Shown in pieces: positions 13,509-37,296 of a stretch of 64,000 nt of DNA. A program made the translations under genes and the position numbers. The notes under the pieces are model-generated. The model worked only from the letters and a program-made list of their open reading frames with translations, was not told the origin of the DNA and did not search any database. Location: contig JAVKHO010000007.1 of NCBI GenBank assembly GCA_031459915.1, positions 56,389-120,388 of the forward strand, given 5' to 3'. Each line of letters starts with the position of its first letter. Positions within the stretch are counted from its first letter, which is position 1. Source of the stretch: Candidatus Tepidifontimicrobium thermophilum (GTDB lineage: Bacteria; Sysuimicrobiota; Sysuimicrobiia; Sysuimicrobiales; Sysuimicrobiaceae).

Positions 13509-14533
13509 GCCGGGAGCGGTTTTCCAGCACCCAGATCCCCCCGGAGGAGGCGGGATTTTTGCGCCACCTCCGTCCCCGAACCCTGGAGGAGTGCATCGGG
13601 CAGGGCAAGGTCCGCGAGGGGCTGCGCATCGCGATCCAGGCGGCGCGGGCCCGGGGAGAGCCTTTGGACCACATCCTCCTGCACGGGCCGCCCGGACTGG
13701 GGAAGACCACCCTGGCCAACGTGGTGGCCGCGGAGATGGGCGCGAACCTGGTGCAGACCTCGGGGCCCGCCCTGGAGCGGGGGGGTGACCTCATGGGCAT
13801 CCTGACCAACCTCGAGTACGGGGACGTGCTGTTCGTGGACGAGATCCACCGCCTGCCGCGGTCCGTGGAGGAGTTCCTGTATCCGGCCATGGAGGACTTC
13901 TGCGTGCACTTCGTCCTGGACCGCGGCGTGCACGCGCGCACGCTCCGGTACACCCTCAAGCCTTTCACCCTCATCGGGGCCACCACCCGCGCGGGCCTGC
14001 TCACCTCGCCGCTGCGGGAGCGCTTCGGGATCTTCTACCACCTGGACTTCTACTCCGAGGACGAGCTCACGCAGCTGGTCCACCGGTCCGCGAGGATCCT
14101 GGGCGTGCCGATCACCGACGGCGGGGCTCGGGAGATCGCCCGGCGATCCAGGGGGACGCCCCGCGTGGCGAACCGGCTGCTGCGGCGGGTGCGGGACTAC
14201 TCCCAGGTGCGGTACGACGGACGCGTGACGGAGGAGGTGGCCCGGGAAGCGTTGGAGTTCGAAGGGGTGGACGAAGCCGGGCTGGACGCGTTCGACCGCG
14301 AGCTGCTGCGGGTCATCGCGGAGGTCTACGGCGGAGGGCCTGTGGGCGTGGAGGCGCTGGCGGCCACCCTCCACGAGGAGGTCGACACCCTCGTGGAGGT
14401 GGTGGAGCCCTACCTCCTCAAGATCGGCTTCCTCACCCGCACGCCCGCGGGCCGCAGGATCACGCCCGCAGCCTACGCGCACCTGGGTCTTCCGCTTCCC
14501 CGCGACGCGCGCTCGCAGGGTACGCTATTCTAG
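13505..14533 (+). CDS. ruvB: Holliday junction helicase RuvB
   Basis: [34 protein letters not shown]. Confidence 0.97.
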
Positions 14534-17013: not shown

Positions 17014-18279
17014 ATGTCGGTGGTGCTGGAGGCGGAGCAGGAGAACCCGTTTGAGGCCGTCTGCCGGTGGATCGACCGGGCCTCGGCCATCCTGGGCTAC
17101 GACGAGTCCACCAGCAGGCCGTTGAAGCACCCGCGGCGGTGCGTCATCGTCTCCCTGCCGGTGGAGATGGACGACGGGCGAGTGGAGGTGTTCACGGGCT
17201 ACCGGGTCCAGTACGACACCGCCCGGGGGCCGTGCAAGGGCGGGCTGCGCTACCACCCCAACGTGAACCTGGACGAGATGAAGGCCTTGGCCGCGTACAT
17301 GTCCATTAAGTGCGCGGTGGTGGACATCCCCTTCGGGGGAGGCAAGGGCGGGGTCGCGTGTGACCCCACGCGGCTGTCGCACCGGGAGCTGGAGCGCATC
17401 ACGCGACGCTACACCGCGGAGATCTTCGACATCATCGGACCCGACAAGGACATCCCCGCGCCGGACGTGGGTACCAACGCCCAGGTGATGGCGTGGGTGA
17501 TGGACACCATCTCCATGAAGCGGGGCTACCTGGAGCCGGGCACCGTGACGGGCAAACCTGTCCCCCTGGGCGGCTCCCGGGGCCGGGAGGAGGCCACGGG
17601 ACGGGGGATCCTGGTGGTGGCTCGGGAGGCGTTCGCGCACCTGGGGATGCCCCTGGAAGGAGCCCGGGTGGTGGTGCAGGGGTTCGGCAACGTGGGCTGG
17701 AACACCGCCCGTCTGCTGCACGAAGCCGGGGCCCGGGTGGTGGCGGTCAGCGACGTGCACGGCGGCGTCTACCACCCCGAAGGGTTGGTCCCGCGGCTGG
17801 TGCGGGAGCACCGGGACCGGACGGGGAGCGTCGTGGGCTACCCTGGGGCGCGCACCCTCACCAATTCGGAGCTGCTGGAGCTGGAGTGCGAGTTGCTGGT
17901 GCCCGCGGCCATCGAGAACCAGATCACGCGGAGCAACGCCCACGCCATCCGCGCCCGGGTGGTGGTGGAGGGTGCGAACGCCCCTACCACGCTGCAGGCC
18001 GACGAGATCCTCCGGCGGCGGGGGGTGTTTGTGGTGCCCGACATCCTGGCCAACGCGGGCGGGGTGGTGGTCAGCTACTTCGAGTGGGTACAGGACCGGT
18101 ATGGCTACTTCTGGCGGGAGGACCAGGTGCGCACCCGGCTGGAGGACAAGATGCGGCAGGCCTTCCGGGACGTGATGGAGCTGTCGACCCAGCTGGGGGT
18201 AGACCTGCGCACGGGCGCGTACTGCCTGGGCGTCCAGCGCATCGTGGAGGCCCGCCGCCTGCGGGGGCTTTATGCCTGA
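17014..18279 (+). CDS. gdhA: Glutamate dehydrogenase (Glu/Leu/Phe/Val DH family)
   Basis: GPCKGGLRY, GGGKGG, DIPAPDV, GSRGREEATG, QGFGNVG, EGANAP. Confidence 0.92.
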   Translation: MSVVLEAEQENPFEAVCRWIDRASAILGYDESTSRPLKHPRRCVIVSLPVEMDDGRVEVFTGYRVQYDTARGPCKGGLRYHPNVNLDEMKALAAYMSIKCAVVDIPFGGGKGGVACDPTRLSHRELERITRRYTAEIFDIIGPDKDIPAPDVGTNAQVMAWVMDTISMKRGYLEPGTVTGKPVPLGGSRGREEATGRGILVVAREAFAHLGMPLEGARVVVQGFGNVGWNTARLLHEAGARVVAVSDVHGGVYHPEGLVPRLVREHRDRTGSVVGYPGARTLTNSELLELECELLVPAAIENQITRSNAHAIRARVVVEGANAPTTLQADEILRRRGVFVVPDILANAGGVVVSYFEWVQDRYGYFWREDQVRTRLEDKMRQAFRDVMELSTQLGVDLRTGAYCLGVQRIVEARRLRGLYA

Positions 18280-18964
18280 GCCGACCCCTGCCCTGGTCCC
18301 CACCCGGGTGACGGTGGAGGTGGTCCGGCACGACCCGGAGGTGGCCGCGTACGTGGAGCGGGCCAACGAGTCCCTGGGGGTTCTGGGCTACACGGAGCAC
18401 GGGGTGCGGCACGCGTCCCTCACCAGCCGCATCGCCTACAACATCCTTCGCCGCTTGGGCTACCCCGAGCGGGAGTGCGAGCTGGCAGCCATCGCCGGGT
18501 ACCTGCACGACATCGGCAACCTCGTCAGCCGGCTGAACCATGAGCACACGGGCGCCTTGCTGGCCGGGGCCATCCTGCAGCGGCTGGGGATGGACCCCAC
18601 GGAGCGGGCGGTGGTGATGAGCGCCATCGGCAACCACGAGGAGTCCCACGGGCAGCCCGTGAGCCCGGTTGGGGCCGCGGTGATCCTGGCGGACAAGTCG
18701 GACGTGCACCGCAGCCGGGTCCGCAACCCTGACCCCGCCACCTTCGACATCCACGACCGGGTGAACTACGCGGTGGAGCACTCCTTCCTGCGGGTGGACG
18801 AGCGGGCCAGGGAGATCACCCTGGAGCTGACCATCAATACGGAGAAGGCGCCGGTGATGGAGTACTTCGAGATCTTCCTGTCCCGCATGGTCATGTGCCG
18901 TCGGGCGGCGGAGCACCTGGGCTGCGCCTTCAAGCTGCAGATCAACGGGGTCCGGTTCCTGTAG
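18272..18964 (+). CDS. HD-superfamily phosphohydrolase
   Basis: TEHGVRH, YLHDIGN, GNHEE, ADKSDVH, DIHDRVNYAV. Confidence 0.85.
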   Translation: MPEPTPALVPTRVTVEVVRHDPEVAAYVERANESLGVLGYTEHGVRHASLTSRIAYNILRRLGYPERECELAAIAGYLHDIGNLVSRLNHEHTGALLAGAILQRLGMDPTERAVVMSAIGNHEESHGQPVSPVGAAVILADKSDVHRSRVRNPDPATFDIHDRVNYAVEHSFLRVDERAREITLELTINTEKAPVMEYFEIFLSRMVMCRRAAEHLGCAFKLQINGVRFL

Positions 18965-22008: not shown

Positions 22009-22985
22009 GCTTTCCCGCGTTCCGCAGCAGACGCCTGCGGCGCACGGAGGCGCTGCGGAGGATTTCCCAGGAGGTGGAGCTTTCGCCCCGTCACCTGATC
22101 GCGCCCCTGTTCGTGAAGGAGGGGATTCCGGAACCGCTCCCCATCCCTTCGCTCCCGGGTCAGGTGCAGCACACCCTCCCCAGCCTGGTGAAGGAGGTGG
22201 GGGAGCTGGTGGAGCTGGGCGTGGGTGCGGTGATCCTGTTCGGGATCCCCGCCCACAAGGACGCGGTGGGCAGCGGGGCGTGGGACGAGCAGGGCGTCGT
22301 TCAGCGTGCCCTGCGGACCCTCCGGTCGGAGTTCGGAGACCGGGTGGCGTTGATGGCCGACCTGTGCCTGTGTGAGTACACCGACCACGGCCACTGCGGG
22401 GTGCTGGCCGAGGGGCCGGAGACGGTGGACAACGACCGTACGCTGGAACTGTACGGCCGCATCGCCGCCAGCCAGGCGCGGGCGGGGGCGGACGTGATCG
22501 CGCCCAGCGGGGTCATGGACGGGCAGGTGGCCGCCATCCGGCGCGCCCTGGACGGGGCGGGCTTCCCGCAGGTGGCGATCCTGAGCTACGCGGCCAAGTT
22601 CGCCTCCACCTTCTACGGGCCGTTCCGGGACGCCGCGGAATCTGCCCCGCGGTTCGGCCATCGACGGGCCTACCAGCTGGCGCCGGCGAACCTGCGGGCC
22701 GCCCTGCGCCGGGTGGAGGAGGAGGTGGCGGAGGGTGCGGACGCGGTGATGGTCAAGCCCGCCCTCCCGTACCTGGACGTGGTGCGGGCGGTGCGGGAGC
22801 GCTGGGAGGTCCCCGTGGCCGCGTACTGTGTCAGCGGGGAGTACGCCATGCTGCACGCGGCGGCGCAGCGGGGCTGGCTGGACCTGGAGTCGGCCATGAT
22901 GGAGGTCCTGCTGGCCATCCGCCGCGCGGGCGCGGACTGGATCCTCACGTACTTCGCGAAGGACGCTGCACGGCTGCTGCGGTGA
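22005..22985 (+). CDS. hemB: Porphobilinogen synthase (Zn type)
   Basis: DLCLCEYTDHGHCG, FYGPFRDA, MVKPALPYLD, VSGEYAM. Confidence 0.96.
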   Translation: MSFPAFRSRRLRRTEALRRISQEVELSPRHLIAPLFVKEGIPEPLPIPSLPGQVQHTLPSLVKEVGELVELGVGAVILFGIPAHKDAVGSGAWDEQGVVQRALRTLRSEFGDRVALMADLCLCEYTDHGHCGVLAEGPETVDNDRTLELYGRIAASQARAGADVIAPSGVMDGQVAAIRRALDGAGFPQVAILSYAAKFASTFYGPFRDAAESAPRFGHRRAYQLAPANLRAALRRVEEEVAEGADAVMVKPALPYLDVVRAVRERWEVPVAAYCVSGEYAMLHAAAQRGWLDLESAMMEVLLAIRRAGADWILTYFAKDAARLLR

Positions 22986-24262
22986 CGGCTTCGGAGGAAC
23001 TGTTCCGGCGGGCCCGGCGCGTGATGCCCGGGGGGGTCAGCAGCCCGGTCCGGGCGTTCCGCGCGGTGGGGGGAAATCCGCCGTTCCTCGTGCGGGGCAA
23101 CGGCGCGTACGTGGAGGACGCAGACGGACGGCGCTACGTGGACTGCGTGAACTCCTGGGGGGCGCTGATCCTGGGCCACGCGCACCCGGCGGTGGTGCGG
23201 GCAGCGCAGCAGGCGGTGGCCGACGGGAGCAGCTTCGGCGCGCCCACACCGTGGGAGGTGGAGTTCTGCGAGCGGCTGTGCGCAGCGGTGCCGTCGGTGG
23301 AGGCGGTCCGGTTGGTGAACTCGGGCACCGAGGCGGTCATGAGCGCCCTGCGGGTGGCTCGGGCTGCCACGGGCCGCGAGGGGGTGGTGAAGTTCGATGG
23401 CGGCTACCACGGCCACGCGGACGCCCTGCTGGTGCGCGCGGGTTCGGGGGTGGCCACCTTCGACCTGCCCGACAGCGCGGGGGTGCCGCCCTCGGCGGTG
23501 CAGGCCACCGTTTCCCTTCCGTACAACGACTTGGACGCGGCGCGGGCTTTTTTCGAGCGGCGCGGGCACGAGATCGCGGCGGTGTTGGTGGAGCCCGTGG
23601 CGGGCAACATGGGCACCGTTCCCCCCGAGCCGGGCTTCCTAGAGGGGTTGCGGGAGCTCACGGCCCGTTACGGCGCGCTGCTGGTGTTCGACGAGGTCAT
23701 CACGGGCTTCCGGTTGCGGTACGGCGCGGCCCAGGAGGTGTTCGGGGTACGGGCAGACCTCACGTGCCTGGGGAAGGTCATCGGCGGCGGCTTCCCCTTG
23801 GCCGCCTACGGCGGCCGGGCCGACCTCATGCGGCTGGTGGCGCCCGAGGGCCCCGTCTACCAGGCGGGCACCCTCTCGGGAAACCCCGTCGCGGTGCGGG
23901 CGGGGCTCGCCACCTTGGGGGTGCTGGAAGATGGAGCGGTCTACGCGCGGCTGGAGCACTGGGGCCACGTGCTCGAGGAGGGGTTACAGGACGCGGCCCG
24001 GCAGGCGGGCGTGGAGGTGTGGGTGAACCGAGTGGGCTCCATGCTGACGGTGTTCTTCACGCCGCAGCGGGTGGTGGACTACGCGACGGCCCGCAACTCT
24101 GACGCGGCGCGATTCGCCCGGTTCTTCCACGGTATGCTGTCCCGAGGGGTGTACCTGCCGCCCTCGCCCTTCGAGGCCTGGTTTCTGTCCGCCGCCCACG
24201 GCGAGCAGGAGGTGGACCGGATCCTCCAGGCGGCCCGGGGGGCGTTCCAGGAGGCCGTATGA
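22982..24262 (+). CDS. hemL: Glutamate-1-semialdehyde 2,1-aminomutase
   Basis: PGGVSSPVRAF, NSGTEA, YHGH, DEVITGFR, GKVIGGG, YQAGTLSGNP. Confidence 0.96.
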   Translation: MTASEELFRRARRVMPGGVSSPVRAFRAVGGNPPFLVRGNGAYVEDADGRRYVDCVNSWGALILGHAHPAVVRAAQQAVADGSSFGAPTPWEVEFCERLCAAVPSVEAVRLVNSGTEAVMSALRVARAATGREGVVKFDGGYHGHADALLVRAGSGVATFDLPDSAGVPPSAVQATVSLPYNDLDAARAFFERRGHEIAAVLVEPVAGNMGTVPPEPGFLEGLRELTARYGALLVFDEVITGFRLRYGAAQEVFGVRADLTCLGKVIGGGFPLAAYGGRADLMRLVAPEGPVYQAGTLSGNPVAVRAGLATLGVLEDGAVYARLEHWGHVLEEGLQDAARQAGVEVWVNRVGSMLTVFFTPQRVVDYATARNSDAARFARFFHGMLSRGVYLPPSPFEAWFLSAAHGEQEVDRILQAARGAFQEAV

Positions 24263-25002
24263 GCGGGCGTGTCCTGGTGGTGATGCCCCTGTACAACGAG
24301 GAGGCGACCCTCCAGGAGGTCCTGGAGGCGGTGCTGCACTACGCGCCACCCGGGACGGACGTCTTGGTGGTGGACGACGGCTCCACGGACGGCTCCGCGG
24401 AGATCCTGGCCCGCTTCCCGGAGGTTCGGGTGATCCGCCACCCGGAGAATCGCGGCTACGGCGCCTCCCTCATCGACGGCTTCCGCTACGCCCTCGACCA
24501 CGGCTACGACGCAGTGGTCACCATGGACTGCGACGCCCAGCACGAGCCGTACCTGATCCCGGACCTGCTGAGTGCTTTGGAGGACGCGGACATCGTGTCC
24601 GGCAGCCGGTACCTCCCCGGTTCGTCTCGGGGCCAGGAGCCGCCCCCGGATCGGCTGCGGATCAACCGGGAGGTCACCGAGCGGGTGAACGCGCTCACGG
24701 GCTACCGGCTCACGGACGCCTTCTGCGGGTTCAAAGCGTATCGGGCCGACGCCCTGCGGCGGATGCAGCTGGACGAGCCCTCCTACGGCATGCCCCTGCA
24801 GGTGTGGGTGCAGGCTGCCCGGTGGGGGCTGCGGGTCCGGGAGATCCCCATCGGTCGCATCTACAAGAACCCCCACCGCCGGTTCTGGGGCGGTCTGGAC
24901 GACCCGGAGGTCCGGCTGCGTTACTACCTGCAGGTGCTGGAGCGGGAGGCGGCTCGGTGGCTGCAGCAGCCGGCCTCCAGCGGGGAGGCGGGCGCGCGGT
25001 GA
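24259..25002 (+). CDS. GT2 family glycosyltransferase (polyprenol-phosphate glycosyltransferase-like, no TM)
   Basis: MPLYNE, VVDDGSTD, NRGYG, MDCDAQH, GSRY, DAFCGFKAY. Confidence 0.9.
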   Translation: MSGRVLVVMPLYNEEATLQEVLEAVLHYAPPGTDVLVVDDGSTDGSAEILARFPEVRVIRHPENRGYGASLIDGFRYALDHGYDAVVTMDCDAQHEPYLIPDLLSALEDADIVSGSRYLPGSSRGQEPPPDRLRINREVTERVNALTGYRLTDAFCGFKAYRADALRRMQLDEPSYGMPLQVWVQAARWGLRVREIPIGRIYKNPHRRFWGGLDDPEVRLRYYLQVLEREAARWLQQPASSGEAGAR

Positions 25003-25679
25003 AGACGGTCCTGGTCCTGGCCCCTCACCCCGACGACGCGGAGATCGCCATGGGTGGTACCATGGCCGCGCTGGTGGCGCAGGGCTGGCGGGTGGTGGTG
25101 TGCGACCTCACCGATGGCGAGCCCACCCCGGTGGGCACGCCGGAGCGGCGGCGGCGGGAGGCGGAACGGGCGGCGCGGATTCTCGGCGTGGAGCGCCAGA
25201 TCCTGGACCTGCCCAACCGTTTCCTGCTGGACGGGGTGGAGGCGCGCAAGAAGGTGGCTGCGGTGATCCGGGCGGTGCGGCCCGAGTGGCTGTTCGTGCC
25301 GTACTGGGAGGACGCCCACCCCGACCACGTCCAGGCCGCCACCCTGTGTGAGGCGGCGCGGTTCTACGCCAAGCTGACCCACACGGACATCCCGGGGGAG
25401 CCCCACTACCCGCGCCGGGTCGTGCACTTCTTCTCCACCCACTACCGCATGGTGCGGCGGCCGTCCTTCGTGTTCGACGTGAGCGAGACGCTGGAGCGCA
25501 AGATGGAGAGCCTGCGCGCGTACGAGAGCCAGTTCGGAGTTGAGCGGGGCAACTCCTGGGTCCTGGAGGCGGTGCGGGATGCCGCCCGCTACTTCGGTTC
25601 CCTGGTGGGCGTCTCGTACGGGGAGCCCTTCCTCCTGCGGGAGGAGCTCGGGGTGCGGAACCTGGAGGGGTTAGTGTGA
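24999..25679 (+). CDS. PIG-L family deacetylase, BshB1-like
   Basis: APHPDDAE, DLTDGE, DAHPDH, AYESQF, YGEPF. Confidence 0.88.
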   Translation: MKTVLVLAPHPDDAEIAMGGTMAALVAQGWRVVVCDLTDGEPTPVGTPERRRREAERAARILGVERQILDLPNRFLLDGVEARKKVAAVIRAVRPEWLFVPYWEDAHPDHVQAATLCEAARFYAKLTHTDIPGEPHYPRRVVHFFSTHYRMVRRPSFVFDVSETLERKMESLRAYESQFGVERGNSWVLEAVRDAARYFGSLVGVSYGEPFLLREELGVRNLEGLV

Positions 25680-27220
25680 CCGACGTGACCGAGCTGTCCA
25701 TCCCCACGCGCCACGGCGAGGTCCTCTGCACGCCTGAGTTCAGCCGTTGGCTGGAGCTGGCGGAAGCCACCGCCCGGCGGCTGGACGCAGCAAGCGTCTT
25801 CGGCCGGCCCCTGAGCGCTCTGCGGGCGCAGGCCCGGTCCGAGCTCGTGGGACGGGCCCAGGCCCTGCTGGGCCGCTGGGGCTTCGCGCCCCCTGAGGCC
25901 TCCCACGGTCCGTGGGTCGCCACCGGCCACCAGCCCGGCCTGTATCACCCGGGGATCTGGATCAAGACGTGGGCCGTGGACATCTGCGCGGGCCAGGGGG
26001 CGACCGGGCTGCACGTGGTGGTGGACTCCGACGAGTGCCAGTCCTGGGGTGCCCGAGTCCCGAGGCGGGACGGGACGCTGCAGGGGGTGCAGCGGACCCT
26101 CGTGGAGTGCGGCGACGGTGTTCCCTTCGAGGCGGCCCCGGTACCCGAGGAGGCCCGCTGGCGGGCCTTCTGCGCACAGCTACGGGACGACCTCGGGACC
26201 CTCGGTCTCCCGGAGCTCCTGGAGCGGGTCTCCCGGGCAGAGCAGGCGGGCCTGGAAAGCCTCTCCCGCGCGCGGCACCTGGGCGATTTCGGGGCCGGCC
26301 TGCGCAGACGGTTGGAGACGAAGCACCGGCAGGTCCGCTACTGGGAGGTGACCGTATCCGAGCTGTCGGAGACGCAGGCCTTCGGCCAGTTCGCCGCCTG
26401 GATCGCCCAGGATGCGGAGCGTTTTCGCGCCTGCCACAACGCGGCCCTGGACGAGTACCGCCGGCAGCAGGGCCTGCGCTCCCCGGCGCAGCCGTTCCCC
26501 AACCTACGGCGGGAAGGCGACTGGGTGGAGTTGCCCTTCTGGCTGGTGCGGGAGGGGAAGCGGCGGCCGGTATTCGTGCGGCCCGGAGCTCCTCCCGTGG
26601 TGTTCTGCGAGGGCAGGCCCGTAGGCGAGCTCACGGACCGTGGGCTGGAGGGCCTGCGCCCCAGGGCCCTCACCCTCACCCTGTTCCTGCGGCTTCTGGT
26701 GGCGGATCTGTTCGTGCACGGCGTGGGAGGCGCGCGCTACGACCGCGTCACCGACCGGGTCCTAGAGGAGTTCTTCGGAGTCACACCGCCGCCCTTCGCG
26801 GTCCTCACGGCCACCTTCCATCTCCCGCTGGCGCGACACGCAGATCCCCGGGAGGCGTACGGGGCTGCGCAGCGTCTGTGGCTGGACCTGCAGCACAACC
26901 CGGACCGCCACCTGGCCGACCCCGCCCAGGCGCGTCCCCTGGTGGAGGAAAAGTGGCGCTGCATCCGGGCTCTGGAGGCCGCGGACCTGACCCGGTCCGC
27001 CCGCCGGGAGCTCGCCCGGCGCATCCGGGCCATCAACGAGGCTTTGCGGGCCCACGTGCAGGACCGGATCGCTGAAGTGGAGGCGGAGCTGGAGGCGTTG
27101 CGGCGGGAGGTGCAGGAACACGAGGTCGCCGCGGACCGAGGCTACCCCTTCTTCCTGTTCGACCCCGAGGAGGTCTGCGCGCCGTTGCGGGCGCAGGAGG
27201 GAGTTCGGTGCGGCCGCTAG
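25676..27220 (+). CDS. Hypothetical protein, distantly BshC-like (putative ligase) with C-terminal coiled coil
   Basis: ATGHQPGLYHPGIWIK resembles the BshC TGQQ/H-x-LF-G-P-Y-K motif; LRPRAL...FVHGVGGARYD; ~510 aa like BshC. Confidence 0.55.
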   Translation: MTDVTELSIPTRHGEVLCTPEFSRWLELAEATARRLDAASVFGRPLSALRAQARSELVGRAQALLGRWGFAPPEASHGPWVATGHQPGLYHPGIWIKTWAVDICAGQGATGLHVVVDSDECQSWGARVPRRDGTLQGVQRTLVECGDGVPFEAAPVPEEARWRAFCAQLRDDLGTLGLPELLERVSRAEQAGLESLSRARHLGDFGAGLRRRLETKHRQVRYWEVTVSELSETQAFGQFAAWIAQDAERFRACHNAALDEYRRQQGLRSPAQPFPNLRREGDWVELPFWLVREGKRRPVFVRPGAPPVVFCEGRPVGELTDRGLEGLRPRALTLTLFLRLLVADLFVHGVGGARYDRVTDRVLEEFFGVTPPPFAVLTATFHLPLARHADPREAYGAAQRLWLDLQHNPDRHLADPAQARPLVEEKWRCIRALEAADLTRSARRELARRIRAINEALRAHVQDRIAEVEAELEALRREVQEHEVAADRGYPFFLFDPEEVCAPLRAQEGVRCGR

Positions 27221-27888
27221 ACCCCGTGGTGACGGACGCCCTGGGCCGGCGGTTCGGGGCCGTGGTGGCCCTGCGGGGCGTGGGACTCCGGGTCGGGGAG
27301 GGCACGTGTCTGCTGCTGTTGGGCCCCAACGGGTCCGGCAAGACCACCCTGCTTCGGGTGCTGGCCACGGCCTTGCGCCCTACGGAGGGCCGCGCGTGGG
27401 TGTGCGGCTACGACGTGGTCTCGGAGGGTCACCGGGTGCGGGAACTGTGCGCTTTCCTGGGGACGTCCCCAGGCGTGTACGCGGGCCTCACCGGGTTCGA
27501 GAACCTGTGCCTGGCCGCGGACCTGTGTGGCCGGCCCCGGCGGCAGGTTGCGGAGCTGCTGGGGTGGGCCGGGCTGGAGCAGGTGGCCCACAGGCTGGTA
27601 CGCACTTACAGCCTCGGCATGCGGCGGCGGCTCGCCCTGGCGCGGGTCCGTTTGCAAGAGCCCCGGGTCCTGCTCTTGGACGAGCCCTTCGTGGGTCTGG
27701 ACGAGGAGGGGACCCGGCTGGTGGGCGAGCTGGTGACGGGGATCAAGAAGCAGAAAGGCGCGGTGGTCCTGGCCACCCACGACCGGCACCGCGCCCGGGC
27801 CGTGTGCGACGCGGTGGCAGAACTGGAGTCGGGCACGCTGCTGAGCTCGGGAACCGCGGGGCTCGCAGGAGCAGTGAGCCGGGGATGA
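27208..27888 (+). CDS. ccmA: Heme ABC exporter ATPase CcmA
   Basis: GPNGSGKTT, YSLGMRRRL, LLLDEPF; ccm context. Confidence 0.85.
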   Translation: MRPLDPVVTDALGRRFGAVVALRGVGLRVGEGTCLLLLGPNGSGKTTLLRVLATALRPTEGRAWVCGYDVVSEGHRVRELCAFLGTSPGVYAGLTGFENLCLAADLCGRPRRQVAELLGWAGLEQVAHRLVRTYSLGMRRRLALARVRLQEPRVLLLDEPFVGLDEEGTRLVGELVTGIKKQKGAVVLATHDRHRARAVCDAVAELESGTLLSSGTAGLAGAVSRG

Positions 27889-29711: not shown

Positions 29712-29901
29712 GCCAGCGCGGCTGGCCCGGCGTCCACGGACCGGAAGCGCTTGACGGGCTCGGATCGGGGCACGGAAAATCGTGGCCGGACCTTCACGGA
29801 GGGGGCCGAGAGGCTCCCTCTTTGCGTGTGCAGGCCGAAGAGGAGTCCGGGCATCGGAAGTCAAAAAGACACGCCAGCTCATTTTTGATTCGGGAGGCAG
29901 G

Positions 29902-30804
29902 TTGCACCGACGGCAAGCCGGACCCCTGTGCGGCCGGCGGCCCCGCGGGGGGGCCGGCGGGTTGTTGCTGCTGGTGGCGGCGATTCTCGGCCTCGCGGGC
30001 TGCCAGCCGTACGTCGGGGTGAGCACCCCCGCCAGGGAGGCCTACCAGCCCCTGGAAGGGTTCGTGGTGCGCATGAACTTCATGCCCCGCAAGCCCAGCG
30101 CGGACGAGGGCCGCAAGATCTACGAGGCGCGCTGCGCGGTGTGCCACGGGCCCGAGGGCCGTGGGGACGGCCCCATGGCGGAGCAGCTGACCGCTCCGGA
30201 GAAAAACCCGTACACGGACTTCTTGAGCCTGTTCCGCATCCACCCCAAGACCGAGCCGCTGCCGAGTCGGCCCGCCCGCTTCAACAACCTGGACCAGATG
30301 CGGTTGAACGCGCCGTTCGCCCTGTTCGAGACTATCGCCCGGGGCCGGCCCCACACTGCCATGCCCGGCTTCCAGCATCCCGCCTACGGTGCCGTGGATG
30401 GGGGTGATCCGCGCCTTACGGACGAACAGATCTGGGACGTGCTGTTCTGGGAGTGGAGCCGGACCACGAGCCGGGACCGGCTGGCACAGGGAAGGCGGAT
30501 CTACAACCAGCTGTGCGCCAGCTGCCACGGGGTGGCGGGCGACGGGAACGGTCCCGAGGCCGCCCGGATCCGCGAGCAGGTGTGGACGTGGGCGCGGGGT
30601 GTGGGGCCGGGGATCTTCACGGACCGGGACTGGATGGCCTACCGGAAGCCCACGGAGCTGTACCAGAAGATCGCGGAGGGAGTGCAGCGGCGCGGGCTGG
30701 AGCTCATGCCCGCCTACGCGGGCAAGCTCTCGGCGGACCAGATCTGGAGCGTGGTAGAGTACCTGTGGACGTTCGTGTACACGCCGCCGCAGGACCTGCG
30801 CTAG
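29902..30804 (+). CDS. Diheme c-type cytochrome, probable lipoprotein
   Basis: Lipobox LAGC; CAVCH and CASCH, each with a distal MP motif; TTG start after GGGAGG (uncertain). Confidence 0.85.
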   Translation: MHRRQAGPLCGRRPRGGAGGLLLLVAAILGLAGCQPYVGVSTPAREAYQPLEGFVVRMNFMPRKPSADEGRKIYEARCAVCHGPEGRGDGPMAEQLTAPEKNPYTDFLSLFRIHPKTEPLPSRPARFNNLDQMRLNAPFALFETIARGRPHTAMPGFQHPAYGAVDGGDPRLTDEQIWDVLFWEWSRTTSRDRLAQGRRIYNQLCASCHGVAGDGNGPEAARIREQVWTWARGVGPGIFTDRDWMAYRKPTELYQKIAEGVQRRGLELMPAYAGKLSADQIWSVVEYLWTFVYTPPQDLR

Positions 30805-30832
30805 CTGCGGGTGCGGCAACGGAGGCGGGGCT

Positions 30833-31477
30833 GTGAACCGTCGGACGTTCCTCAAGGCGCTGAGTGCGGTGCCGGTGCTGGGGGGTCTCGGCGCCTTCCT
30901 GGCGCCGGTGCTGCGCTACCTGAAGCCGAACCTGGAGCCGGGGCTGGGGGTTCCCCAGGGGAAGGTGCCCCCGGACCTCGCGGAGGGGGACCTCCCGAAG
31001 GGGGAGCCGCTCCCCATCGCCACCCTGGAGGAGCTGCGCGAGCCCTGGTCCAGCAAGTTCTTCGTGTTCACCCAGAAGTACCCGCAGTACACGCCGGAGC
31101 TGGCCAAGGCGGCCACGGTCCCCGGGGTGGCCATCAAGCTGCCGTGGAAGTTGAGCTTCCCCGGCTACAAGGCCGGGAAGGAGCCCACGGACATCGTGGT
31201 GTTCTCCCGCATCTGCCCGCACCTGGGCTGCATCTTCAACTACGTGCCGAACTGGCGGGAGGTCACGGCGGGCTACGGCGGGTACGTGCCGCCGGAGGAA
31301 CGTCGCCACGGCCTCATGGCCTGCCCCTGCCACCTGTCCATCTACGACCCCGCGGACCGGGAGGTGCCCGGCCGGGTGCTGTCGGGACCCGCGCCCCGGC
31401 CCCCCCGCTACTTCACCTACGAGATCCGCGACGGGGTCATCGTGGTGACGGGCGCCGAGCCCGGCGGGATCGCCTAG
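30833..31477 (+). CDS. Rieske [2Fe-2S] subunit of a Rieske/cytochrome b complex
   Basis: Tat signal NRRTFLK; CPHLGC and CPCHLS boxes; GPAPRP. Confidence 0.93.
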   Translation: MNRRTFLKALSAVPVLGGLGAFLAPVLRYLKPNLEPGLGVPQGKVPPDLAEGDLPKGEPLPIATLEELREPWSSKFFVFTQKYPQYTPELAKAATVPGVAIKLPWKLSFPGYKAGKEPTDIVVFSRICPHLGCIFNYVPNWREVTAGYGGYVPPEERRHGLMACPCHLSIYDPADREVPGRVLSGPAPRPPRYFTYEIRDGVIVVTGAEPGGIA

Positions 31478-31489
31478 GGAGCCGGAGCG

Positions 31490-32638
31490 ATGTGGGACCG
31501 GTTGCGGGAGTGGTTCCGGGAGCGCAAGGAGAAGCTGGACCTTTTCGACGAGACCCAGGTCGACCGCCAGGACAACCCCCTCTACCTCCTCGGTCAGATC
31601 GTGTACTTCGCGTGGATCGCGGTGGTGGTGAGCGGGATCCTGCTCATGATCTGGTACGAGCCCACCACCCACGGCGCCTACAACTCCATCCTCCGCATCC
31701 AGCACGAGGTCCCCTTGGGCTGGCTGATCCGCGGGGTGCACAAGTACGGCGCGGACATGCTGATCCTCGCCATCACCCTGCGCATCTACCGGATGTACTT
31801 CCTGGGCGAGTACAAGCGGCCCAACGAGCTGTCGTGGATGATCCTGTTCGGCTCCCTGGTGCTGGCCATGATCTCCGGCCTCACGGGGTACCTGCTGATC
31901 TGGAACCAGCGGGCCTTCTGGGCGGCGAAGGTAGTCCTCACGGTGGCGGTGTACCTGGATGAGCTGCCCCTCATCGGGCAGACGCGGTTCGGCAGCGCCA
32001 TCGCCTTCGCCTTCCTGGGTGGGCCCGCGGAAGGGCAGGGGACTCTCACGCGCTTCTACGCCATCCACTTCGGCATCTCGGCCCTGCTGCTGGTGGCGGC
32101 GGAGATCTACTTCTACTTCACCCGGCGGCGCCGGTTCGTGTTGTCCCCCACCGCTTTGGTGATCCTGGCCCTCATGCTGGTGGTCACCAGCTACGTGTTC
32201 CCCGCGGAGATGGGCCGGCGGGCCGACCCCAACCGGACGCCGCTCCCGATCCTTTCCGACTGGTACTTCCTGGCGCTGTACCAGTACGTGAAGTACACCC
32301 CGCCCCTGTGGGCCGGGCTGGGGCCGGGTCTGCTGATCGCGTACGGGATGCTGGTGCCGTTCCTCGACCGCAGTAAGGGCCGCAGGCCGTCCGAGCGCCC
32401 CTTCTTCACCGTGGTGGGAATTATGGCCCTGACCTACTTCCTGGTGTTCACCGCTCTCATCATGTTCAACATCGCCGTGATCGGGAGGGACCCGCACGTG
32501 GTCCTGCTGGTCACCGCCGCCACCCTGGGTCTGGGCCTGGTGTTGGAGTTCCGTTACCGCCGGCGGAGGAAGCTCGCAGAGGCCGCCGCGCCGGCCCCGG
32601 CGCCGCGGGCCGCGCCGGCCCGGGCGACGGTGGGGTGA
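31490..32638 (+). CDS. Cytochrome b (b6 + subunit IV-like fused), only the bL His pair retained
   Basis: GWLIRGVH, TGYLLIWNQ, LTRFYAIH, SDWYF; Arg and Tyr at the second His positions. Confidence 0.88.
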   Translation: MWDRLREWFRERKEKLDLFDETQVDRQDNPLYLLGQIVYFAWIAVVVSGILLMIWYEPTTHGAYNSILRIQHEVPLGWLIRGVHKYGADMLILAITLRIYRMYFLGEYKRPNELSWMILFGSLVLAMISGLTGYLLIWNQRAFWAAKVVLTVAVYLDELPLIGQTRFGSAIAFAFLGGPAEGQGTLTRFYAIHFGISALLLVAAEIYFYFTRRRRFVLSPTALVILALMLVVTSYVFPAEMGRRADPNRTPLPILSDWYFLALYQYVKYTPPLWAGLGPGLLIAYGMLVPFLDRSKGRRPSERPFFTVVGIMALTYFLVFTALIMFNIAVIGRDPHVVLLVTAATLGLGLVLEFRYRRRRKLAEAAAPAPAPRAAPARATVG

Positions 32639-32642
32639 GGCG

Positions 32643-32906
32643 GTGGAGGCGGTCCGGTTCGGGATGGCTTTCGGCCTGGCGGTAGCAGGCCTGCACGGCA
32701 CCTGGCAGGCGGCGCGCCTGGCGTGGGTACAGCCCCAGCCGGAGCGGTGGCTTGTGGCGGCCGGGTGGCTGGCGGTGCTGGTGGTCTCGGCCGCGTGGGC
32801 GGGCTACCTGCTGTACGCCGCGGACCGCCGGGCGGGCCGGGTGCGTCGACGGGTCGCGGTGTACGAGCGCTGGCTGGCTTTCCAGCGAGGCGGGAGGTGG
32901 GCGTGA
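32643..32906 (+). CDS. Small 2-TM hypothetical protein
   Basis: SD GAGG, two hydrophobic segments, overlaps the next gene. Confidence 0.65.
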   Translation: MEAVRFGMAFGLAVAGLHGTWQAARLAWVQPQPERWLVAAGWLAVLVVSAAWAGYLLYAADRRAGRVRRRVAVYERWLAFQRGGRWA

Positions 32907-33106
32907 GGGAGCCAGAGCGCGGCGGCTGGTACCTGGCGGTGGCGGGCTTTCTGGCGGTACTGGCCCTGGCGTGCGTCGGCCTGATGGTGTACGGGGAGTG
33001 GTTCGACCGGCGCCTGGTGGCCTCGGGAGCCGTGGGCGTGCTGCTGGTGCTGTACGCCGTCATCGTGGTGCTGTTCCGCAAGGCGCACCTCACCGCGGAG
33101 GACTAG
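32903..33106 (+). CDS. Small 2-TM hypothetical protein
   Basis: GTG after GGGAGG, GTGA overlap; WYLAVAGFLAVLALA...VLLVLYAVIVVLF. Confidence 0.7.
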   Translation: MREPERGGWYLAVAGFLAVLALACVGLMVYGEWFDRRLVASGAVGVLLVLYAVIVVLFRKAHLTAED

Positions 33107-33107
33107 G

Positions 33108-34283
33108 GTGTACCGGCGGTTGTTGCTGAGCCTGCAGAGTGCCACCCTGCGGTTGGACACCTGGATCAACCGCGTCCTGCCGCAGGACTTCAACCCCCTG
33201 TACTACACCGGGGGGCTGTCGAACCTGTTCCTCACCATCCTGGTGGTGTCGGGGATCCTCATCTTCCTGTACTACGAGCCGAGCCTGGAGGGCGCCTACG
33301 CCTCGGTGGAGTTCCTCACCCGCGACGTGCCCTACGGGGTCGTGTTCCGCGGGATCCACCGCTACGCCGCGGACGCGTACCTGGTGGCCATCCTCCTGCA
33401 CCTGTTCCGGAACTGGTTCACGGACCGCTACCGGGAGGCCCGGGACAGCCAGTGGCTGTCGGGGATGTTCCTGCTGGTGGTGTCGGGCTTCGCGGGCTTC
33501 ACCGGCTACCTGTTGGTGTGGGACGAGCGGTCGCAGCTGCTGACGAGCCTCACGGTACAGGCCCTGAGGTCCGTCCCCCTGGTGGGAGACCGGCTCGCCC
33601 GGGTATTCCTGGGGGGCCCCGGGGTGAGCGACACCACCCTGCCGCGGTTCCTGTTCCTCCACGTGGGGCCCGCCATGACCCTGTACGTACTCCTGTGGTG
33701 GCACTACGTGCGCCTCCGCCACCCCAAGATCTGGCCCCCCTCCGTGTGGGTGCTGTTCAGCCTGGGCCTGCTGTTCATCCTCGCTTCCGCCTTGCCCGCC
33801 ACGAGCGGACGGCCGGCGCAGCCGGGCGCCTCGCCGGAGGGGTTCGCGGTGGACTGGTTCTTCCTGTGGCCGTACGTGCTGGCCCGCTGGCTGGCGCCCG
33901 GTTGGGCCCTGGCCCTGGTGGTGGCCCTGGTGGCATACGGCATGGTGGTCCCCTACACCCTGCGGGAGACTCCGGAGCAGCGGGGCGTCCGGGCCTTGGG
34001 CCAGGCGGTGGTGGTGGAGGAGAACTGCACGGGCTGCGAGCTGTGCTACTACGACTGCCCGTACAACGCCATCTACATGGTGCCGAGCCCGTACCCGGGG
34101 AAGAGCCGGGCTGCGGCCAACCGGAAGCTGCTGGCAGTGGTGGTGGACTCCCGGTGCGTGGAGTGCGGGATCTGTATCGGCGCCTGCCCCTTCGAGGCCC
34201 TGGAGTTGCCGAGGATGCTGGACAAGGACGTACAGCAGCGCATCCAGCGGGGCGCACGCGCCGCGGCCCCGGTGGGTTCCTGA
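33108..34283 (+). CDS. Cytochrome b fused to C-terminal 2[4Fe-4S] ferredoxin
   Basis: RGIHRY..LLHLFR and FLHV..WWHY (all four His); CTGCELCYYDCP and CVECGICIGACP. Confidence 0.9.
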   Translation: MYRRLLLSLQSATLRLDTWINRVLPQDFNPLYYTGGLSNLFLTILVVSGILIFLYYEPSLEGAYASVEFLTRDVPYGVVFRGIHRYAADAYLVAILLHLFRNWFTDRYREARDSQWLSGMFLLVVSGFAGFTGYLLVWDERSQLLTSLTVQALRSVPLVGDRLARVFLGGPGVSDTTLPRFLFLHVGPAMTLYVLLWWHYVRLRHPKIWPPSVWVLFSLGLLFILASALPATSGRPAQPGASPEGFAVDWFFLWPYVLARWLAPGWALALVVALVAYGMVVPYTLRETPEQRGVRALGQAVVVEENCTGCELCYYDCPYNAIYMVPSPYPGKSRAAANRKLLAVVVDSRCVECGICIGACPFEALELPRMLDKDVQQRIQRGARAAAPVGS

Positions 34284-34293
34284 GGCGAGAGCC

Positions 34294-34725
34294 ATGGCGA
34301 CGGTACCGGATCGGACCCCGCAGGCGGAGGAGGCAGCCCCCCGGGTCGTGGGGTTCCTGTGCGACTGGGCGGTACGCAGCGAGGGGCTCCTGAGCGCCGA
34401 CGACACCCTGGTAGGCATGCCGCATGTCACGGTGATCCGGGTCCCCTGCTCAGGGTTCGTCAAGCCCGGGTGGTTGGAGCTGGCGCTGCGCAGCGGCGCC
34501 GCGGGCGCCTTCGTGTGCGGTTGCCCCATGGGGGACTGCCTCAACCGGGAAGGCAACTGGATCATGGAGGATCGCATCGACCAGCTGCGGAAGCGTTTGA
34601 GCCGGCAGAAGGTGGACCCTGAGCGGGTCGCGTTCTTCGCCTTCGGCCTGCACGAGCGGGAGGACTTCCTGCGCGCGGTGGCGGAGTTCGTGGACCGGGT
34701 GCGCGGATCCGGAGGGAAGCGGTGA
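34294..34725 (+). CDS. MvhD/FlpD-family [2Fe-2S] protein
   Basis: VVGFLCDW, IRVPCSG, GCPMGDC..REGN, VDPERV. Confidence 0.85.
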   Translation: MATVPDRTPQAEEAAPRVVGFLCDWAVRSEGLLSADDTLVGMPHVTVIRVPCSGFVKPGWLELALRSGAAGAFVCGCPMGDCLNREGNWIMEDRIDQLRKRLSRQKVDPERVAFFAFGLHEREDFLRAVAEFVDRVRGSGGKR

Positions 34726-34838
34726 CGCGGTTTGGCCCGAAACGGTGGAAGACGTACCTGTGGTACGCCCTGTTCTACCTGGTGTTCTTTGCCCTGTTGC
34801 TGTTCGTGGCGGCCTTCGGTCTGGTGGCGGAGGCGTAG
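34722..34838 (+). CDS. 38-aa single-TM peptide (not in the ORF track)
   Basis: MTRFGPKRWKTYLWYALFYLVFFALLLFVAAFGLVAEA; GGAGGG SD, GTGA overlap with the mvhD-like stop. Confidence 0.7.
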   Translation: MTRFGPKRWKTYLWYALFYLVFFALLLFVAAFGLVAEA

Positions 34839-34853
34839 CGGAAGGGACACGGG

Positions 34854-36248
34854 ATGCTGGCGTGGATGTTCACCGACGAGCGATGGAGCTCCGTCCGGCG
34901 GTTCCTGTACGCGGGCGCGCTGTGGGGGATCCTGGCGCTGGCCTACGAGGCGCTGGCCGCCGCGCAGCGGGCCTGGCCGCAGGTCCTCGCGGACGTCCCC
35001 TGGGTGTCCCACGGGCGGGTGGTGGCCACCGGACAGGACCTGTGGGTGTTCGGTTTCCTGTCCCACCTCCTGGTGGGCGCGGCGCTGCGGGTGGTGGGAC
35101 AGGGCGACCGGGAGGGGCTGTGGAGCGAGCCCCTCGCGAACCTGAGCCTGTGGCTGTGGACTGTGGCGCAGGTGCTCAGCTGGTGGTGGATCTCCACGGG
35201 CTGGACCCGAGGCCGACCGCTCGGTGAGGCTCCCTGGCCGGTGGACCTGCTCCGGCTAGCGGGCGCGCTGCTTCTGTTGTGGGTGGTTCGCAACACGCTC
35301 GTCCGATCTCCCCGTAGGGACCCCGCGCTGGCCCTGGTGTTCGCGGGCTTCACCGGGCTGCCTCTGGTCCTAGTACTGGGGAAGGGCTTGTTCTGGCCCT
35401 TCGACAACCCCTACCACGGGATCCTGGACGCTCTGAGCCAGGCGTTCCTGCGGGCAGGCCTGGTCTGGCTATGGGGGGTCCCGCTGGCCGGTGGGGTCTG
35501 CCTGTACGTCCTGTCGGCCCTGACCGGCCGGCGCGGGCTTTCGGAGGGAGTGGGCTTCGCCGCCCTGTTCGGCCTGGTCAGTTTCGGGGCTCTCGCTGGG
35601 CCCGCGGAGTTCGTGTGGGGTCCGGTGCCGTTCTGGGTGCAGACCGTGGGCGCTGTGGCGCAGGGGCTGCTGGTGTTGCCGGTGGCGACGCTGCTCGTGG
35701 GTGCCGCGCGGTCGCTGGAAGGGCACTGGCAGTCCCTCGGGGACCACCCCGGTGTGGTCTTCGTGCTGGCGGGCTGGCTGGCGCTGACCTCCGGCGTGTC
35801 TTTGAGCGCGCTGGCGTCCCTCGTGGGTCCCAGCCGCGTGGTGCACCTCTCCCTGTGGGGAGAGGGGGTGCGGGTTCTGGTGCTGGGCGGCTGTGCCGCG
35901 GTGGCCGTGGGGTGTGCGTACCTGCTGACGCCACACGTGCTGGGACGCTCGCTAGCGAGCCGGGCCCTGGCCTGGCGGCATCTGTGGCTGGTGGTGGTGG
36001 CGTGGGCGCTCTCTGCGCCCGCGCTGCTGCTGGCGGGTCTGAGCCAGGGTGCGGCTTGGGCCACGGGCACGGTGCCCTTCGCTCACGCGGTACAGGCCAG
36101 CCGGCCCCTGCTGGCCGTGGCCTGGGCCGCGGCTCTGCTGGTGTGGGTCGGCCAGGCGGTGTTCGCGTGGAACCTGTTCTTGACCTCAGACTCCGGGGAA
36201 CCGGTTCCCGCAGCGGAGCAGGAGCTCCTGCCGGTGGCGGGGTCTTAG
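34854..36248 (+). CDS. cbb3-type oxidase subunit I (CcoN)-like protein lacking metal ligands
   Basis: ~12 TM; GR, GWTRGRPLGEAPWPVD, GPVPFWVQT and GLSQG..W align with CcoN; followed by a CcoO-like gene. Confidence 0.75.
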   Translation: MLAWMFTDERWSSVRRFLYAGALWGILALAYEALAAAQRAWPQVLADVPWVSHGRVVATGQDLWVFGFLSHLLVGAALRVVGQGDREGLWSEPLANLSLWLWTVAQVLSWWWISTGWTRGRPLGEAPWPVDLLRLAGALLLLWVVRNTLVRSPRRDPALALVFAGFTGLPLVLVLGKGLFWPFDNPYHGILDALSQAFLRAGLVWLWGVPLAGGVCLYVLSALTGRRGLSEGVGFAALFGLVSFGALAGPAEFVWGPVPFWVQTVGAVAQGLLVLPVATLLVGAARSLEGHWQSLGDHPGVVFVLAGWLALTSGVSLSALASLVGPSRVVHLSLWGEGVRVLVLGGCAAVAVGCAYLLTPHVLGRSLASRALAWRHLWLVVVAWALSAPALLLAGLSQGAAWATGTVPFAHAVQASRPLLAVAWAAALLVWVGQAVFAWNLFLTSDSGEPVPAAEQELLPVAGS

Positions 36249-36283
36249 GAGTGCGCCAGGCGGTGGGTCCTGGAGGTGGTGCG

Positions 36284-36742
36284 GTGAGGGATGCCGTGGG
36301 AGCTGTAGGGCGGCTGGTGGTGGCCGCGGTGGTGTGCGGGTTTGTGGTGACCGCCCTCCTGCCCGCCCTAGATCCTGCGGTCCGGACCGCGCGGGCGGCG
36401 CCCCTGTCAGCCCAGGCGGCGCGGGGGCGGTGGGTGTACGTGAGGGAGGGGTGTGTGGTCTGCCACACCCAGCAGGTGCGAGGGGTGGAGGCCCGGTTCG
36501 GCGTGGTGCGCGCGCCGGGTGACGTGGGGCAGGCTTCAACTGCGGAGCAGTACTCCGGTCAGGACCCCGTGCTGCTGGGTCGGCTGCGCCTAGGGCCGGA
36601 CCTGTCAAGGGTAGGGGCGCGTACCTCGGGACAGGAATTGCGGACGGCGCTGCTGTCGGGCACGGGGGGCATGCCCTCGTACCGGTACCTCTCGGACGCG
36701 GAGCTGGCTGACCTGGTGGCGTACCTGCTGGCGCTGCGGTAG
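36284..36742 (+). CDS. cbb3-type subunit II (CcoO/FixO)-like monoheme cytochrome c
   Basis: GRWVYVREGCVVCHTQQVR, GPDLSRVGAR, MPSY. Confidence 0.85.
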   Translation: MRDAVGAVGRLVVAAVVCGFVVTALLPALDPAVRTARAAPLSAQAARGRWVYVREGCVVCHTQQVRGVEARFGVVRAPGDVGQASTAEQYSGQDPVLLGRLRLGPDLSRVGARTSGQELRTALLSGTGGMPSYRYLSDAELADLVAYLLALR

Positions 36743-36750
36743 GAGGCGAC

Positions 36751-37296
36751 ATGGGAAACGAAACGACCACCGCGAGGCCTTCCCGCTGGCTGCTGGCGCT
36801 GTACGTGCTGCTGCCTTTGTGGGCCCTGGCGTACCTGTTCGTGGCGGGTGGGCTGGTGCAGCCGGAAATCAGGCCGGTGGCGCGGAACGTGGAGGGTGTT
36901 TCTGCAGGCACCGCCGCGGCGCCGGACGGCTCCGAGCACGTGATGGGCATCCTGGCGGTGGTCCCGGAGGACGCCAGGGACGACCAGCCCCCGCGTCCGG
37001 TGACGGACGCCATGCTGGCCCAGGCGAAGGCCCAGTACGACACCCTGTGCGCGGTGTGCCACGGACCCGAGGGACGCGGGGACGGCCCCGCGGGCGCGGC
37101 CCTGAACCCGAAACCCCTCAACTTCCACTTCCGGGCCTTTCAGGAACGGATGCCGGTGGGCGCTACCCACTGGGTGATCAAGAACGGCCTGGGCAACACT
37201 CCCCGCCGCAGCGGGATGCCGGCCTTCGGCCAGCTACCGGACGACCAGATCTGGGCCCTGGTGGAGTACGTCCGGCGGCTGGGCCGCCAGCCATGA
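36751..37296 (+). CDS. Membrane-anchored monoheme cytochrome c
   Basis: N-terminal TM, CAVCH, SGMPAF, QIWALVEY. Confidence 0.88.
   Translation: MGNETTTARPSRWLLALYVLLPLWALAYLFVAGGLVQPEIRPVARNVEGVSAGTAAAPDGSEHVMGILAVVPEDARDDQPPRPVTDAMLAQAKAQYDTLCAVCHGPEGRGDGPAGAALNPKPLNFHFRAFQERMPVGATHWVIKNGLGNTPRRSGMPAFGQLPDDQIWALVEYVRRLGRQP

Follow-up and report, generated by a model that had tools for sequence, protein, structure and literature searches.

A conserved three-gene cassette in the Sysuimicrobiota that parallels the bacillithiol pathway and whose probable product is an undescribed, soluble conjugate of an amino acid and a sugar

Bacillithiol is made in three steps by a glycosyltransferase of family GT4 (BshA), a deacetylase (BshB1) and a ligase (BshC), whilst mycothiol is the product of MshA, MshA2, MshB, MshC (a paralogue of cysteinyl-tRNA synthetase, CysRS) and the GNAT protein MshD. 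The reaction of BshC had itself not been reconstituted as of PMC5790435, in the passages of that paper that concern the enzyme, and the relevant part of PMC6282198 gives no documented or predicted low-molecular-weight thiol for the Planctomycetes. Here we describe a cassette of three genes, encoding a family 2 glycosyltransferase (GT2), a BshB1-type deacetylase and an unannotated protein designated X, in a 64,000-nucleotide stretch of DNA (the window) from Candidatus Tepidifontimicrobium thermophilum, a member of the Sysuimicrobiota (CSP1-3). In its logic the cassette resembles bacillithiol synthesis without belonging to it: BshA, R109 of BshB and a sequence match to the BshC family were each looked for and not found. 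That the trio is kept across almost the whole of this uncultured phylum, and in other groups for which no small protective thiol is known, makes it likely that its product is an undescribed soluble compound of an amino acid and a sugar. No description of the cassette was found in the open-access literature, to which our search was confined.

All three genes lie on the forward strand. The first (24259..25002) encodes a GT2 of 247 amino acids (PF00535, 116.9 bits; best Protein Data Bank (PDB) match PfDPMS, E 1.9e-16) predicted to carry out the first step, the second (24999..25679, with a GTG start) a zinc N-deacetylase of 226 amino acids from the BshB1 family (LmbE/PIG-L) predicted to act next, and the third (25676..27220) the 514 amino acids of X, a predicted amide ligase. 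Inspection of the open reading frames and of every junction bore out an earlier account of this DNA (the preliminary description), in which three genes coupled by 4-nt overlaps sit between hemL and ccmA: the overlap is ATGA between hemL and the GT2 gene and GTGA at both the GT2/deacetylase and deacetylase/X junctions. Third-position GC of the three genes is 0.89–0.93, similar to that of the flanking genes.

The cassette is real and conserved. Among 94 genomes of the host phylum, which are kin and do not give independent counts, a GT2 orthologue is found in 93, a BshB1-like deacetylase in 90 (86 of them over the TIGR04001 cut-off) and X in 90, a degree of conservation that the preliminary description had left to be checked; canonical bshC (PF10079) is found in none of these genomes and bshA over cut-off in one. 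The 80 best of 308 genome loci comprise 60 of phylum type and 20 of Actinomycetota (Coriobacteriia) type, and the order GT2–deacetylase–X is seen in 57 and 19 of these, respectively. Conservation of order in 76 of 80 loci shows that the trio is not a chance arrangement; of the four exceptions, three run into the end of a contig and the other is without the deacetylase gene. Two genomes have a gene resembling a short-chain dehydrogenase/reductase, named by motif, between the GT2 and deacetylase genes (L233:3001-3708 and L234:3063-3782), an insertion that we judged incidental. One genome of 59% completeness carries both the cassette and a true bshA (G023:C314:1808-2920, 521.8 bits), with no match to bshC.

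X itself belongs to a large family, with 3,803 clusters at E values up to 0.001 and 3,331 (at 50% identity) up to 1e-10. The records of its close relatives bear the label Sysuimicrobiota/CSP1-3 or Armatimonadota, in the Atlas it falls among unnamed, mostly Planctomycetota clusters (the clusters nearest to the deacetylase there are mostly Planctomycetota too), and it is present in the planctomycete Schlesneria paludicola. We also took the 80 best of 565 metagenome loci, using a profile with named relatives in the Planctomycetota (Planctomycete-type loci). A GT2 gene lies directly 5′ of X in 63 of them, 12 have less than 600 nt of sequence 5′ of X, and five have room there but no GT2 gene; GT2–X is thus the most conserved pair. 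In 10 metagenome loci a DUF34/NIF3 gene lies 5′ of the GT2 gene or of X (L145:4360-5217, for example). X was not found in plasmids or viral contigs, and a bshC motif scan of viral contigs likewise found nothing. Distribution in the Actinomycetota is patchy: X occurs in one of 201 sampled genomes, the seed itself, and two genomes flagged as unpublished (G099 and G146) enter the sample solely as negatives. Actinomycetota are known for mycothiol. One low-GC lineage of that phylum (L169-L183, 15 of 301 sampled genomes) has canonical bshC–bshB1, with bshA next to them in at least L181, where the order is bshC–bshB1–bshA.

An AlphaFold2 model of X, built from an alignment of 59 sequences (pLDDT 95), has a Rossmann core like that of class I aminoacyl-tRNA synthetases followed by long C-terminal helices, which is the architecture of BshC. 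Foldseek ranks B. subtilis BshC (4wbd) first (E 3.3e-12, TM 0.57) and class I lysyl-tRNA synthetase (LysRS-I) second. Comparison with 48,161 chains by VIA-align gives BshC at Z 26.0 (442 residues aligned, root-mean-square deviation (rmsd) 6.2) and the LysRS-I catalytic domain (1IRX) at Z 20.2 (~275 residues, rmsd 3.1–3.2 Å), followed by other synthetases at about 10.3, among them MshC at 10.1; the model thus matches 4WBD and 1IRX far above other synthetases. The preliminary description had called the third protein distantly BshC-like, and at the level of fold the model supports this; by analogy X would catalyse an amide ligation.

At the level of sequence, X has no NCBIfam family match and no Pfam family at cut-off, comparison of 66 of its relatives with Pfam yielded no PF10079 and only two weak chance rows, and neither single-sequence nor profile searches against the PDB detected BshC. 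A short CarD match (E 0.01) had no support from the fold search and was rejected. As controls we used canonical BshC proteins from the low-GC lineage described above, of which 13 were aligned and one checked (405.9 bits, TIGR03998). In hhalign X matches these proteins only weakly (E 0.004, probability 8.7%), though across 400 columns, and the alignment pairs the motifs of X (TGHQP..HPG.W.K, D.D and HG.GG..YD) with those of BshC: GHQP..HPG.W.K with GQQP...GP....K, D.D with DD and HG.GG..YD with GPGE..Y. All 13 controls score above their own shuffles with the X profile, each weakly. At the lead level (0.79–0.85) the Atlas also links X to archaeal clusters that in part carry PF10079.

The HPG of the first motif, present in 111 of 139 X sequences, corresponds to the HxG of the HIGH-type motif; LysRS-I has HxGN and the BshC controls TGP. 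In the motif alignment the invariant Glu of the LysRS-I HxGNxRE motif, which we take to bind the lysine side chain, is replaced by Lys in 127 of 139 X sequences, as it is in BshC. X is not a housekeeping synthetase, because KMSKS is absent from all 139 sequences and the host genome encodes a separate LysRS-I (G000:C18). Comparison of X with eight LysRS-I sequences in hhalign was not significant (E 0.12). The modelled structure suggests that the BshC superfamily descended from LysRS-I, a link of which we found no description in the open-access literature.

The synthetase-fold origin of X, together with the near-universal single-copy retention of the cassette in the phylum, could also be read as a sign that an aminoacylated amino sugar is attached to a macromolecule, either tRNA or a phosphoprotein, and tgt, NIF3 or TrmA-like genes do recur nearby in different lineages. 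These neighbours, however, vary from lineage to lineage in a manner that fits local synteny, X has no match to an anticodon domain and no KMSKS, and BshB1 enzymes act on small glycosides; we consider such a role very improbable.

The deacetylase passes the BshB1 equivalog model TIGR04001 (203.7 bits against a cut-off of 182.5) and keeps the metal ligands H10, D13 and H110, as well as R51, the counterpart of BshB R53. The second arginine of the substrate-binding pair is gone. R109 of BshB has been tied to GlcNAc-malate binding by docking and by an R109K mutant (in the portion of PMC4101496 that deals with this residue), and PDB alignments to 6p2t, 2ixd and 1uan place A106 of the host deacetylase at its position. 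Across 72 full-length cassette deacetylases this position is Ala in 69, Ser in three and never Arg, whereas it is Arg in all 14 canonical controls and in the three structures; the motif reads DA/DS-HPDH in 72 of 72 cassette proteins against DR-HPDH in 14 of 14 canonical ones. The loop nearby is EPTP rather than ELS/EMG. Because R109 is lost throughout, the aglycone is probably not malate. The preliminary description had proposed the same chemical logic on a different acceptor; this fits what we find, with the loss of R109 pointing independently to a non-malate aglycone.

It could still be argued that the GT2 has simply displaced BshA, making GlcNAc-malate, with bacillithiol or its beta anomer as the product, given that the deacetylase is a BshB1 equivalog and that three invariant arginines of the GT2 could hold a dicarboxylate. 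Against this, in addition to the altered R109 position and adjoining loop, X is far diverged from BshC, and GT2s of the dolichol-phosphate mannose (DPM) synthase type invert, making an alpha linkage unlikely. We think such a displacement improbable.

The best curated matches of the GT2 are of the DPM-synthase/PpgS type, all below cut-off, and its closest solved and curated relatives act on polyprenyl phosphate. In PfDPMS the acceptor phosphate is held by R117, R131 and S135, no catalytic base is needed, and the lipid lies between two amphipathic interface helices (IFH1 and IFH2) that contact lipid and membrane (as set out in the part of PMC5526996 on this complex). We compared 131 full-length cassette GT2s (from 140 matches) with 17 DPM-like controls (17 of the 20 loci given, three from the host genome). 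The cassette proteins have the motif DCD-x-QHEP and invariant R117, R132, N136, C156, F209, R219 and Y223, so that both anion-binding arginines of DPM synthase (R117 and R132) are present in 131 of 131. The phosphate-site Ser (S135 of PfDPMS), however, is Asn in all 131 and Ser in 16 of 17 controls, and the Lys found in the acceptor loop (A-loop) of 16 of 17 controls is replaced by Leu. Mean Kyte–Doolittle hydropathy is −0.95 (sd 0.36) for IFH1 and −0.96 for IFH2 in the cassette GT2s (n = 131), against +0.25 (sd 0.39) and +0.28 in the controls (n = 17); judged at the sequence level, the helices are not of the amphipathic DPM-synthase type.

Polar interface helices combined with retained arginines therefore favour an anionic, soluble acceptor over a lipid. 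The cassette GT2s are predicted to form a distinct soluble subfamily with a DPM-synthase-like fold, and their reaction is probably inverting, giving a beta linkage. A model of the GT2 predicted without an alignment was too poor to use (pLDDT 57). C91, within the DxD motif, is found in 129 of 131 cassette GT2s and C156 in all 131, the controls having mostly Ala at 91 and Ala, Cys or Ser at 156; the two cysteines may possibly form a redox switch or a metal site.

These features bear on the second product put forward in the preliminary description, a lipid-linked aminoacyl-glucosamine. Here, polyprenyl-phosphate-GlcNAc would be made, deacetylated, aminoacylated and flipped for the modification of a surface polymer, in the manner of ArnC and ArnD. 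The polyprenyl-phosphate relatives of the GT2 and its R117 and R132 are what such a route would lead one to expect, and of the 20 Actinomycetota-type loci, 19 have plsY and 18 a gene resembling diacylglycerol kinase (DAGK) 3′ of the cassette in the reverse orientation. The polar helices, the change of S135 to Asn and that of the A-loop Lys to Leu speak against it, as do the lack of a transmembrane stretch in either the GT2 or the deacetylase, the BshB1 type of the latter and the absence of any flippase, GtrA or GT-C protein among the annotated recurring neighbour families. We therefore hold a lipid-linked product to be improbable and favour the other suggestion of the preliminary description, a low-molecular-weight thiol.

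Is there another thiol pathway in the host? The preliminary description had allowed for a true bshA elsewhere in the genome. None exists over cut-off in this 96.25% complete assembly: the best BshA (TIGR03999) match reaches 128 bits against a cut-off of 273.7, and none of five other carrier genomes has one either. The sole MshC (TIGR03447) match, at 298.9 against 485.1, is presumably CysRS. BshC and gshB-type genes are similarly absent over cut-off, gshA, ergothioneine and Brx genes being outside the search. The genome does encode five DinB_2 proteins over cut-off, a family that we take to include thiol S-transferases. Some neighbours of the cassette also have redox associations: 19 of the 20 Actinomycetota-type loci have an OsmC/YhfA-like gene 5′ of it, and six of the 60 phylum-type loci a Bcp-type peroxiredoxin gene nearby. 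In 19 of the 52 metagenome loci with room, an Eis-like GNAT of about 430–480 amino acids is encoded directly 3′ of X on the same strand (L150:4750-6048, for example). This recalls MshD, which is a point in favour of a thiol, and the protein is a candidate for an N-acetylation step in some Planctomycete-type carriers.

The same GNAT can be taken the other way. Should X use some amino acid in place of Cys within the same soluble pathway, the product would be a non-thiol aminoacyl-glucosaminide serving as a solute, cofactor or carrier. Besides the Eis-like enzyme, the superposition of X on LysRS-I (Z 20.2, rmsd about 3.1 Å), its possession of an HxG that canonical BshC controls lack and the want of a YpdA-type reductase over cut-off are all in keeping with this. 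On the other hand, the full-length match of X is to BshC rather than LysRS, the Glu of LysRS-I has become Lys in X just as in BshC, and OsmC and Bcp neighbours favour a redox function. A non-thiol product on these lines strikes us as unlikely, though not to be neglected.

Our preferred reading is of an undescribed bacillithiol analogue, predicted to be Cys-GlcN linked to a small, anionic, non-malate aglycone and to be made by a cytoplasmic pathway. The gene order, families, fold, residue changes and distribution described above are observed; the sugar donor, its acceptor, the amino acid and any part in redox chemistry we infer as follows. The GT2 would transfer GlcNAc from a nucleotide sugar to a soluble anion, probably with inversion, the acceptor being held by R117, R132, N136 and R219; because these residues sit at the phosphate-binding positions of DPM synthase, a small phosphate monoester is our best guess. 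The deacetylase, a BshB1-type zinc enzyme by family, would then remove the N-acetyl group, and X, with its BshC-like fold, would couple the amine so exposed to an amino acid in the manner of BshC, Cys being the likeliest choice.

Several observations weigh against this scheme. X is only 11% identical to BshC and matches neither PF10079 nor TIGR03998; it is also close to LysRS-I (Z 20.2 on the model), and the amino acid it uses could be other than Cys. A GT2 gene is missing from five of the 68 metagenome loci with upstream room, whilst the deacetylase gene is adjacent in none of the 80 Planctomycete-type loci, one distant PIG-L gene apart. The GT2 controls are DPM-like by sequence only, the hydropathy ranges of their interface helices overlap slightly with those of the cassette GT2s, and positions 135, 139 and 143 of the latter are still hydrophobic. 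The host genome has no YpdA-type disulfide reductase over cut-off (best E 2.7e-14), and cassette neighbours may reflect synteny. With these set against the evidence for it, we see the thiol reading as evenly poised. If non-thiol products are counted in, a soluble analogue of bacillithiol on another aglycone becomes distinctly probable. More tentatively, and with rather less than even confidence, we propose a further class of sugar-based low-molecular-weight thiol, a beta-linked Cys-GlcN with a phosphorylated aglycone, as the redox buffer so far missing from Planctomycetes, Sysuimicrobiota and the anaerobic Coriobacteriia. Its makers would be a descendant of DPM synthase that has come off the membrane and a ligase that stands between class I LysRS and BshC.

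Upstream of the cassette lies hemL (22982..24262, forward strand; TIGR00713, 594 bits, passing the cut-off), which is outside the conserved cassette, and downstream a gene for a ccmA-like ABC ATPase (27208..27888, forward strand; TIGR01189, 130.5 bits against a cut-off of 131.6), a phylum-specific neighbour. The latter is followed by what, by their motifs, we take to be ccmB-C-D-E-like genes. The preliminary description had suggested that the product might serve cytochrome c thiol redox, since ccmG/H are absent from the locus, and a compound specific to heme or cytochrome c maturation could in principle replace CcmG/H: of the 60 phylum-type loci, 47 have ccm genes within 6 kb of the cassette, 40 have ccmA directly 3′ of X and 11 have hemL directly 5′ of the GT2 gene. 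Neither of these adjacencies occurs in the 20 Actinomycetota-type loci, which have no hem or ccm genes nearby at all, and in the 80 metagenome loci there was no match to hem, ccmB, ccmC or ccmE and only seven weak, generic ABC-ATPase matches.

The absence of ccmG/H does hold for positions 14000–38000 but not for the genome. Contig C32 encodes a protein of the CcmF family as well as a CcmH domain, and contigs C14 and C12 carry three ResA/DsbE-like (CcmG-like) thioredoxin genes, all of these being family-level matches below equivalog cut-offs; two of the three flank a gene for a membrane protein that, by its motif, is presumably CcdA-like. Because these proteins are encoded elsewhere, the need for a thiol to replace CcmG/H falls away. 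Apocytochrome reduction is, moreover, extracytoplasmic, whereas the cassette enzymes look cytoplasmic. The position between hem and ccm genes is thus a lineage-specific neighbourhood and not a function, and we regard a dedicated role in heme or cytochrome c maturation as scarcely credible.

Two other features of the window can be noted. Between an HD-domain gene at 18272-18964 and the cassette lie the hem genes; in 18 of the 60 phylum-type loci such a gene is the immediate 5′ neighbour of the GT2 gene. We considered it as a phosphatase step and dropped it, as it is not beside the cassette in other lineages. Past the ccm genes, at 29782-37296, a cytochrome c (checked against Pfam) is encoded in an unusual respiratory cluster, whose other products we take to be a Rieske-like protein, a pair of cytochrome b-like proteins, one of them carrying ferredoxin-type Cys motifs, and subunits of cbb3-like type.

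What do these results mean more widely? The cassette provides named genes for knock-out in cultured carriers, and annotation of a gene as bshB1 in these phyla does not imply bacillithiol. X represents a large unannotated enzyme family in which the synthetase active-site motif is better preserved than in BshC, and, if it is indeed a ligase, could reveal the unsolved BshC reaction.

Set beside class I LysRS (1IRX), X lacks KMSKS and any anticodon-domain match, and the profile–profile comparison falls short of significance, but the catalytic domain superposes on it and the TG...HxG and D..D motifs are shared. The GT2 has the GT-A core, the DxD-x-QH motif and the equivalents of R117 and R131 in common with the polyprenyl-phosphate GT2s (PfDPMS, ArnC, PpgS and GtrB). 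It differs from these in its polar interface helices, in having Asn for Ser at the phosphate site, in lacking the R..G.SK acceptor loop, in its invariant or nearly invariant C91/C156/R219/Y223 and in having no membrane partner in sight. With the mycothiol pathway the cassette shares glycosylation, deacetylation and then the addition of an amino acid by a class I synthetase-like enzyme, as well as the GNAT found after X in some Planctomycete-type loci; unlike that pathway, it has a GT2 in place of a GT4, the neighbouring GNAT is Eis-like, no MshC is found over cut-off and X stands far nearer to BshC and LysRS-I (Z 26 and 20) than to MshC (Z 10). Bacillithiol synthesis remains the closest parallel. 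There, too, the differences are plain: a GT-A, DPM-like GT2 rather than the GT4 BshA, a deacetylase without R109, no YpdA over cut-off, and an X that fails the BshC hidden Markov models at 11% identity whilst keeping HxG. What the two systems have in common is a BshB1-equivalog deacetylase, a ligase of the BshC fold with motifs at matching positions and the logic of the three steps.

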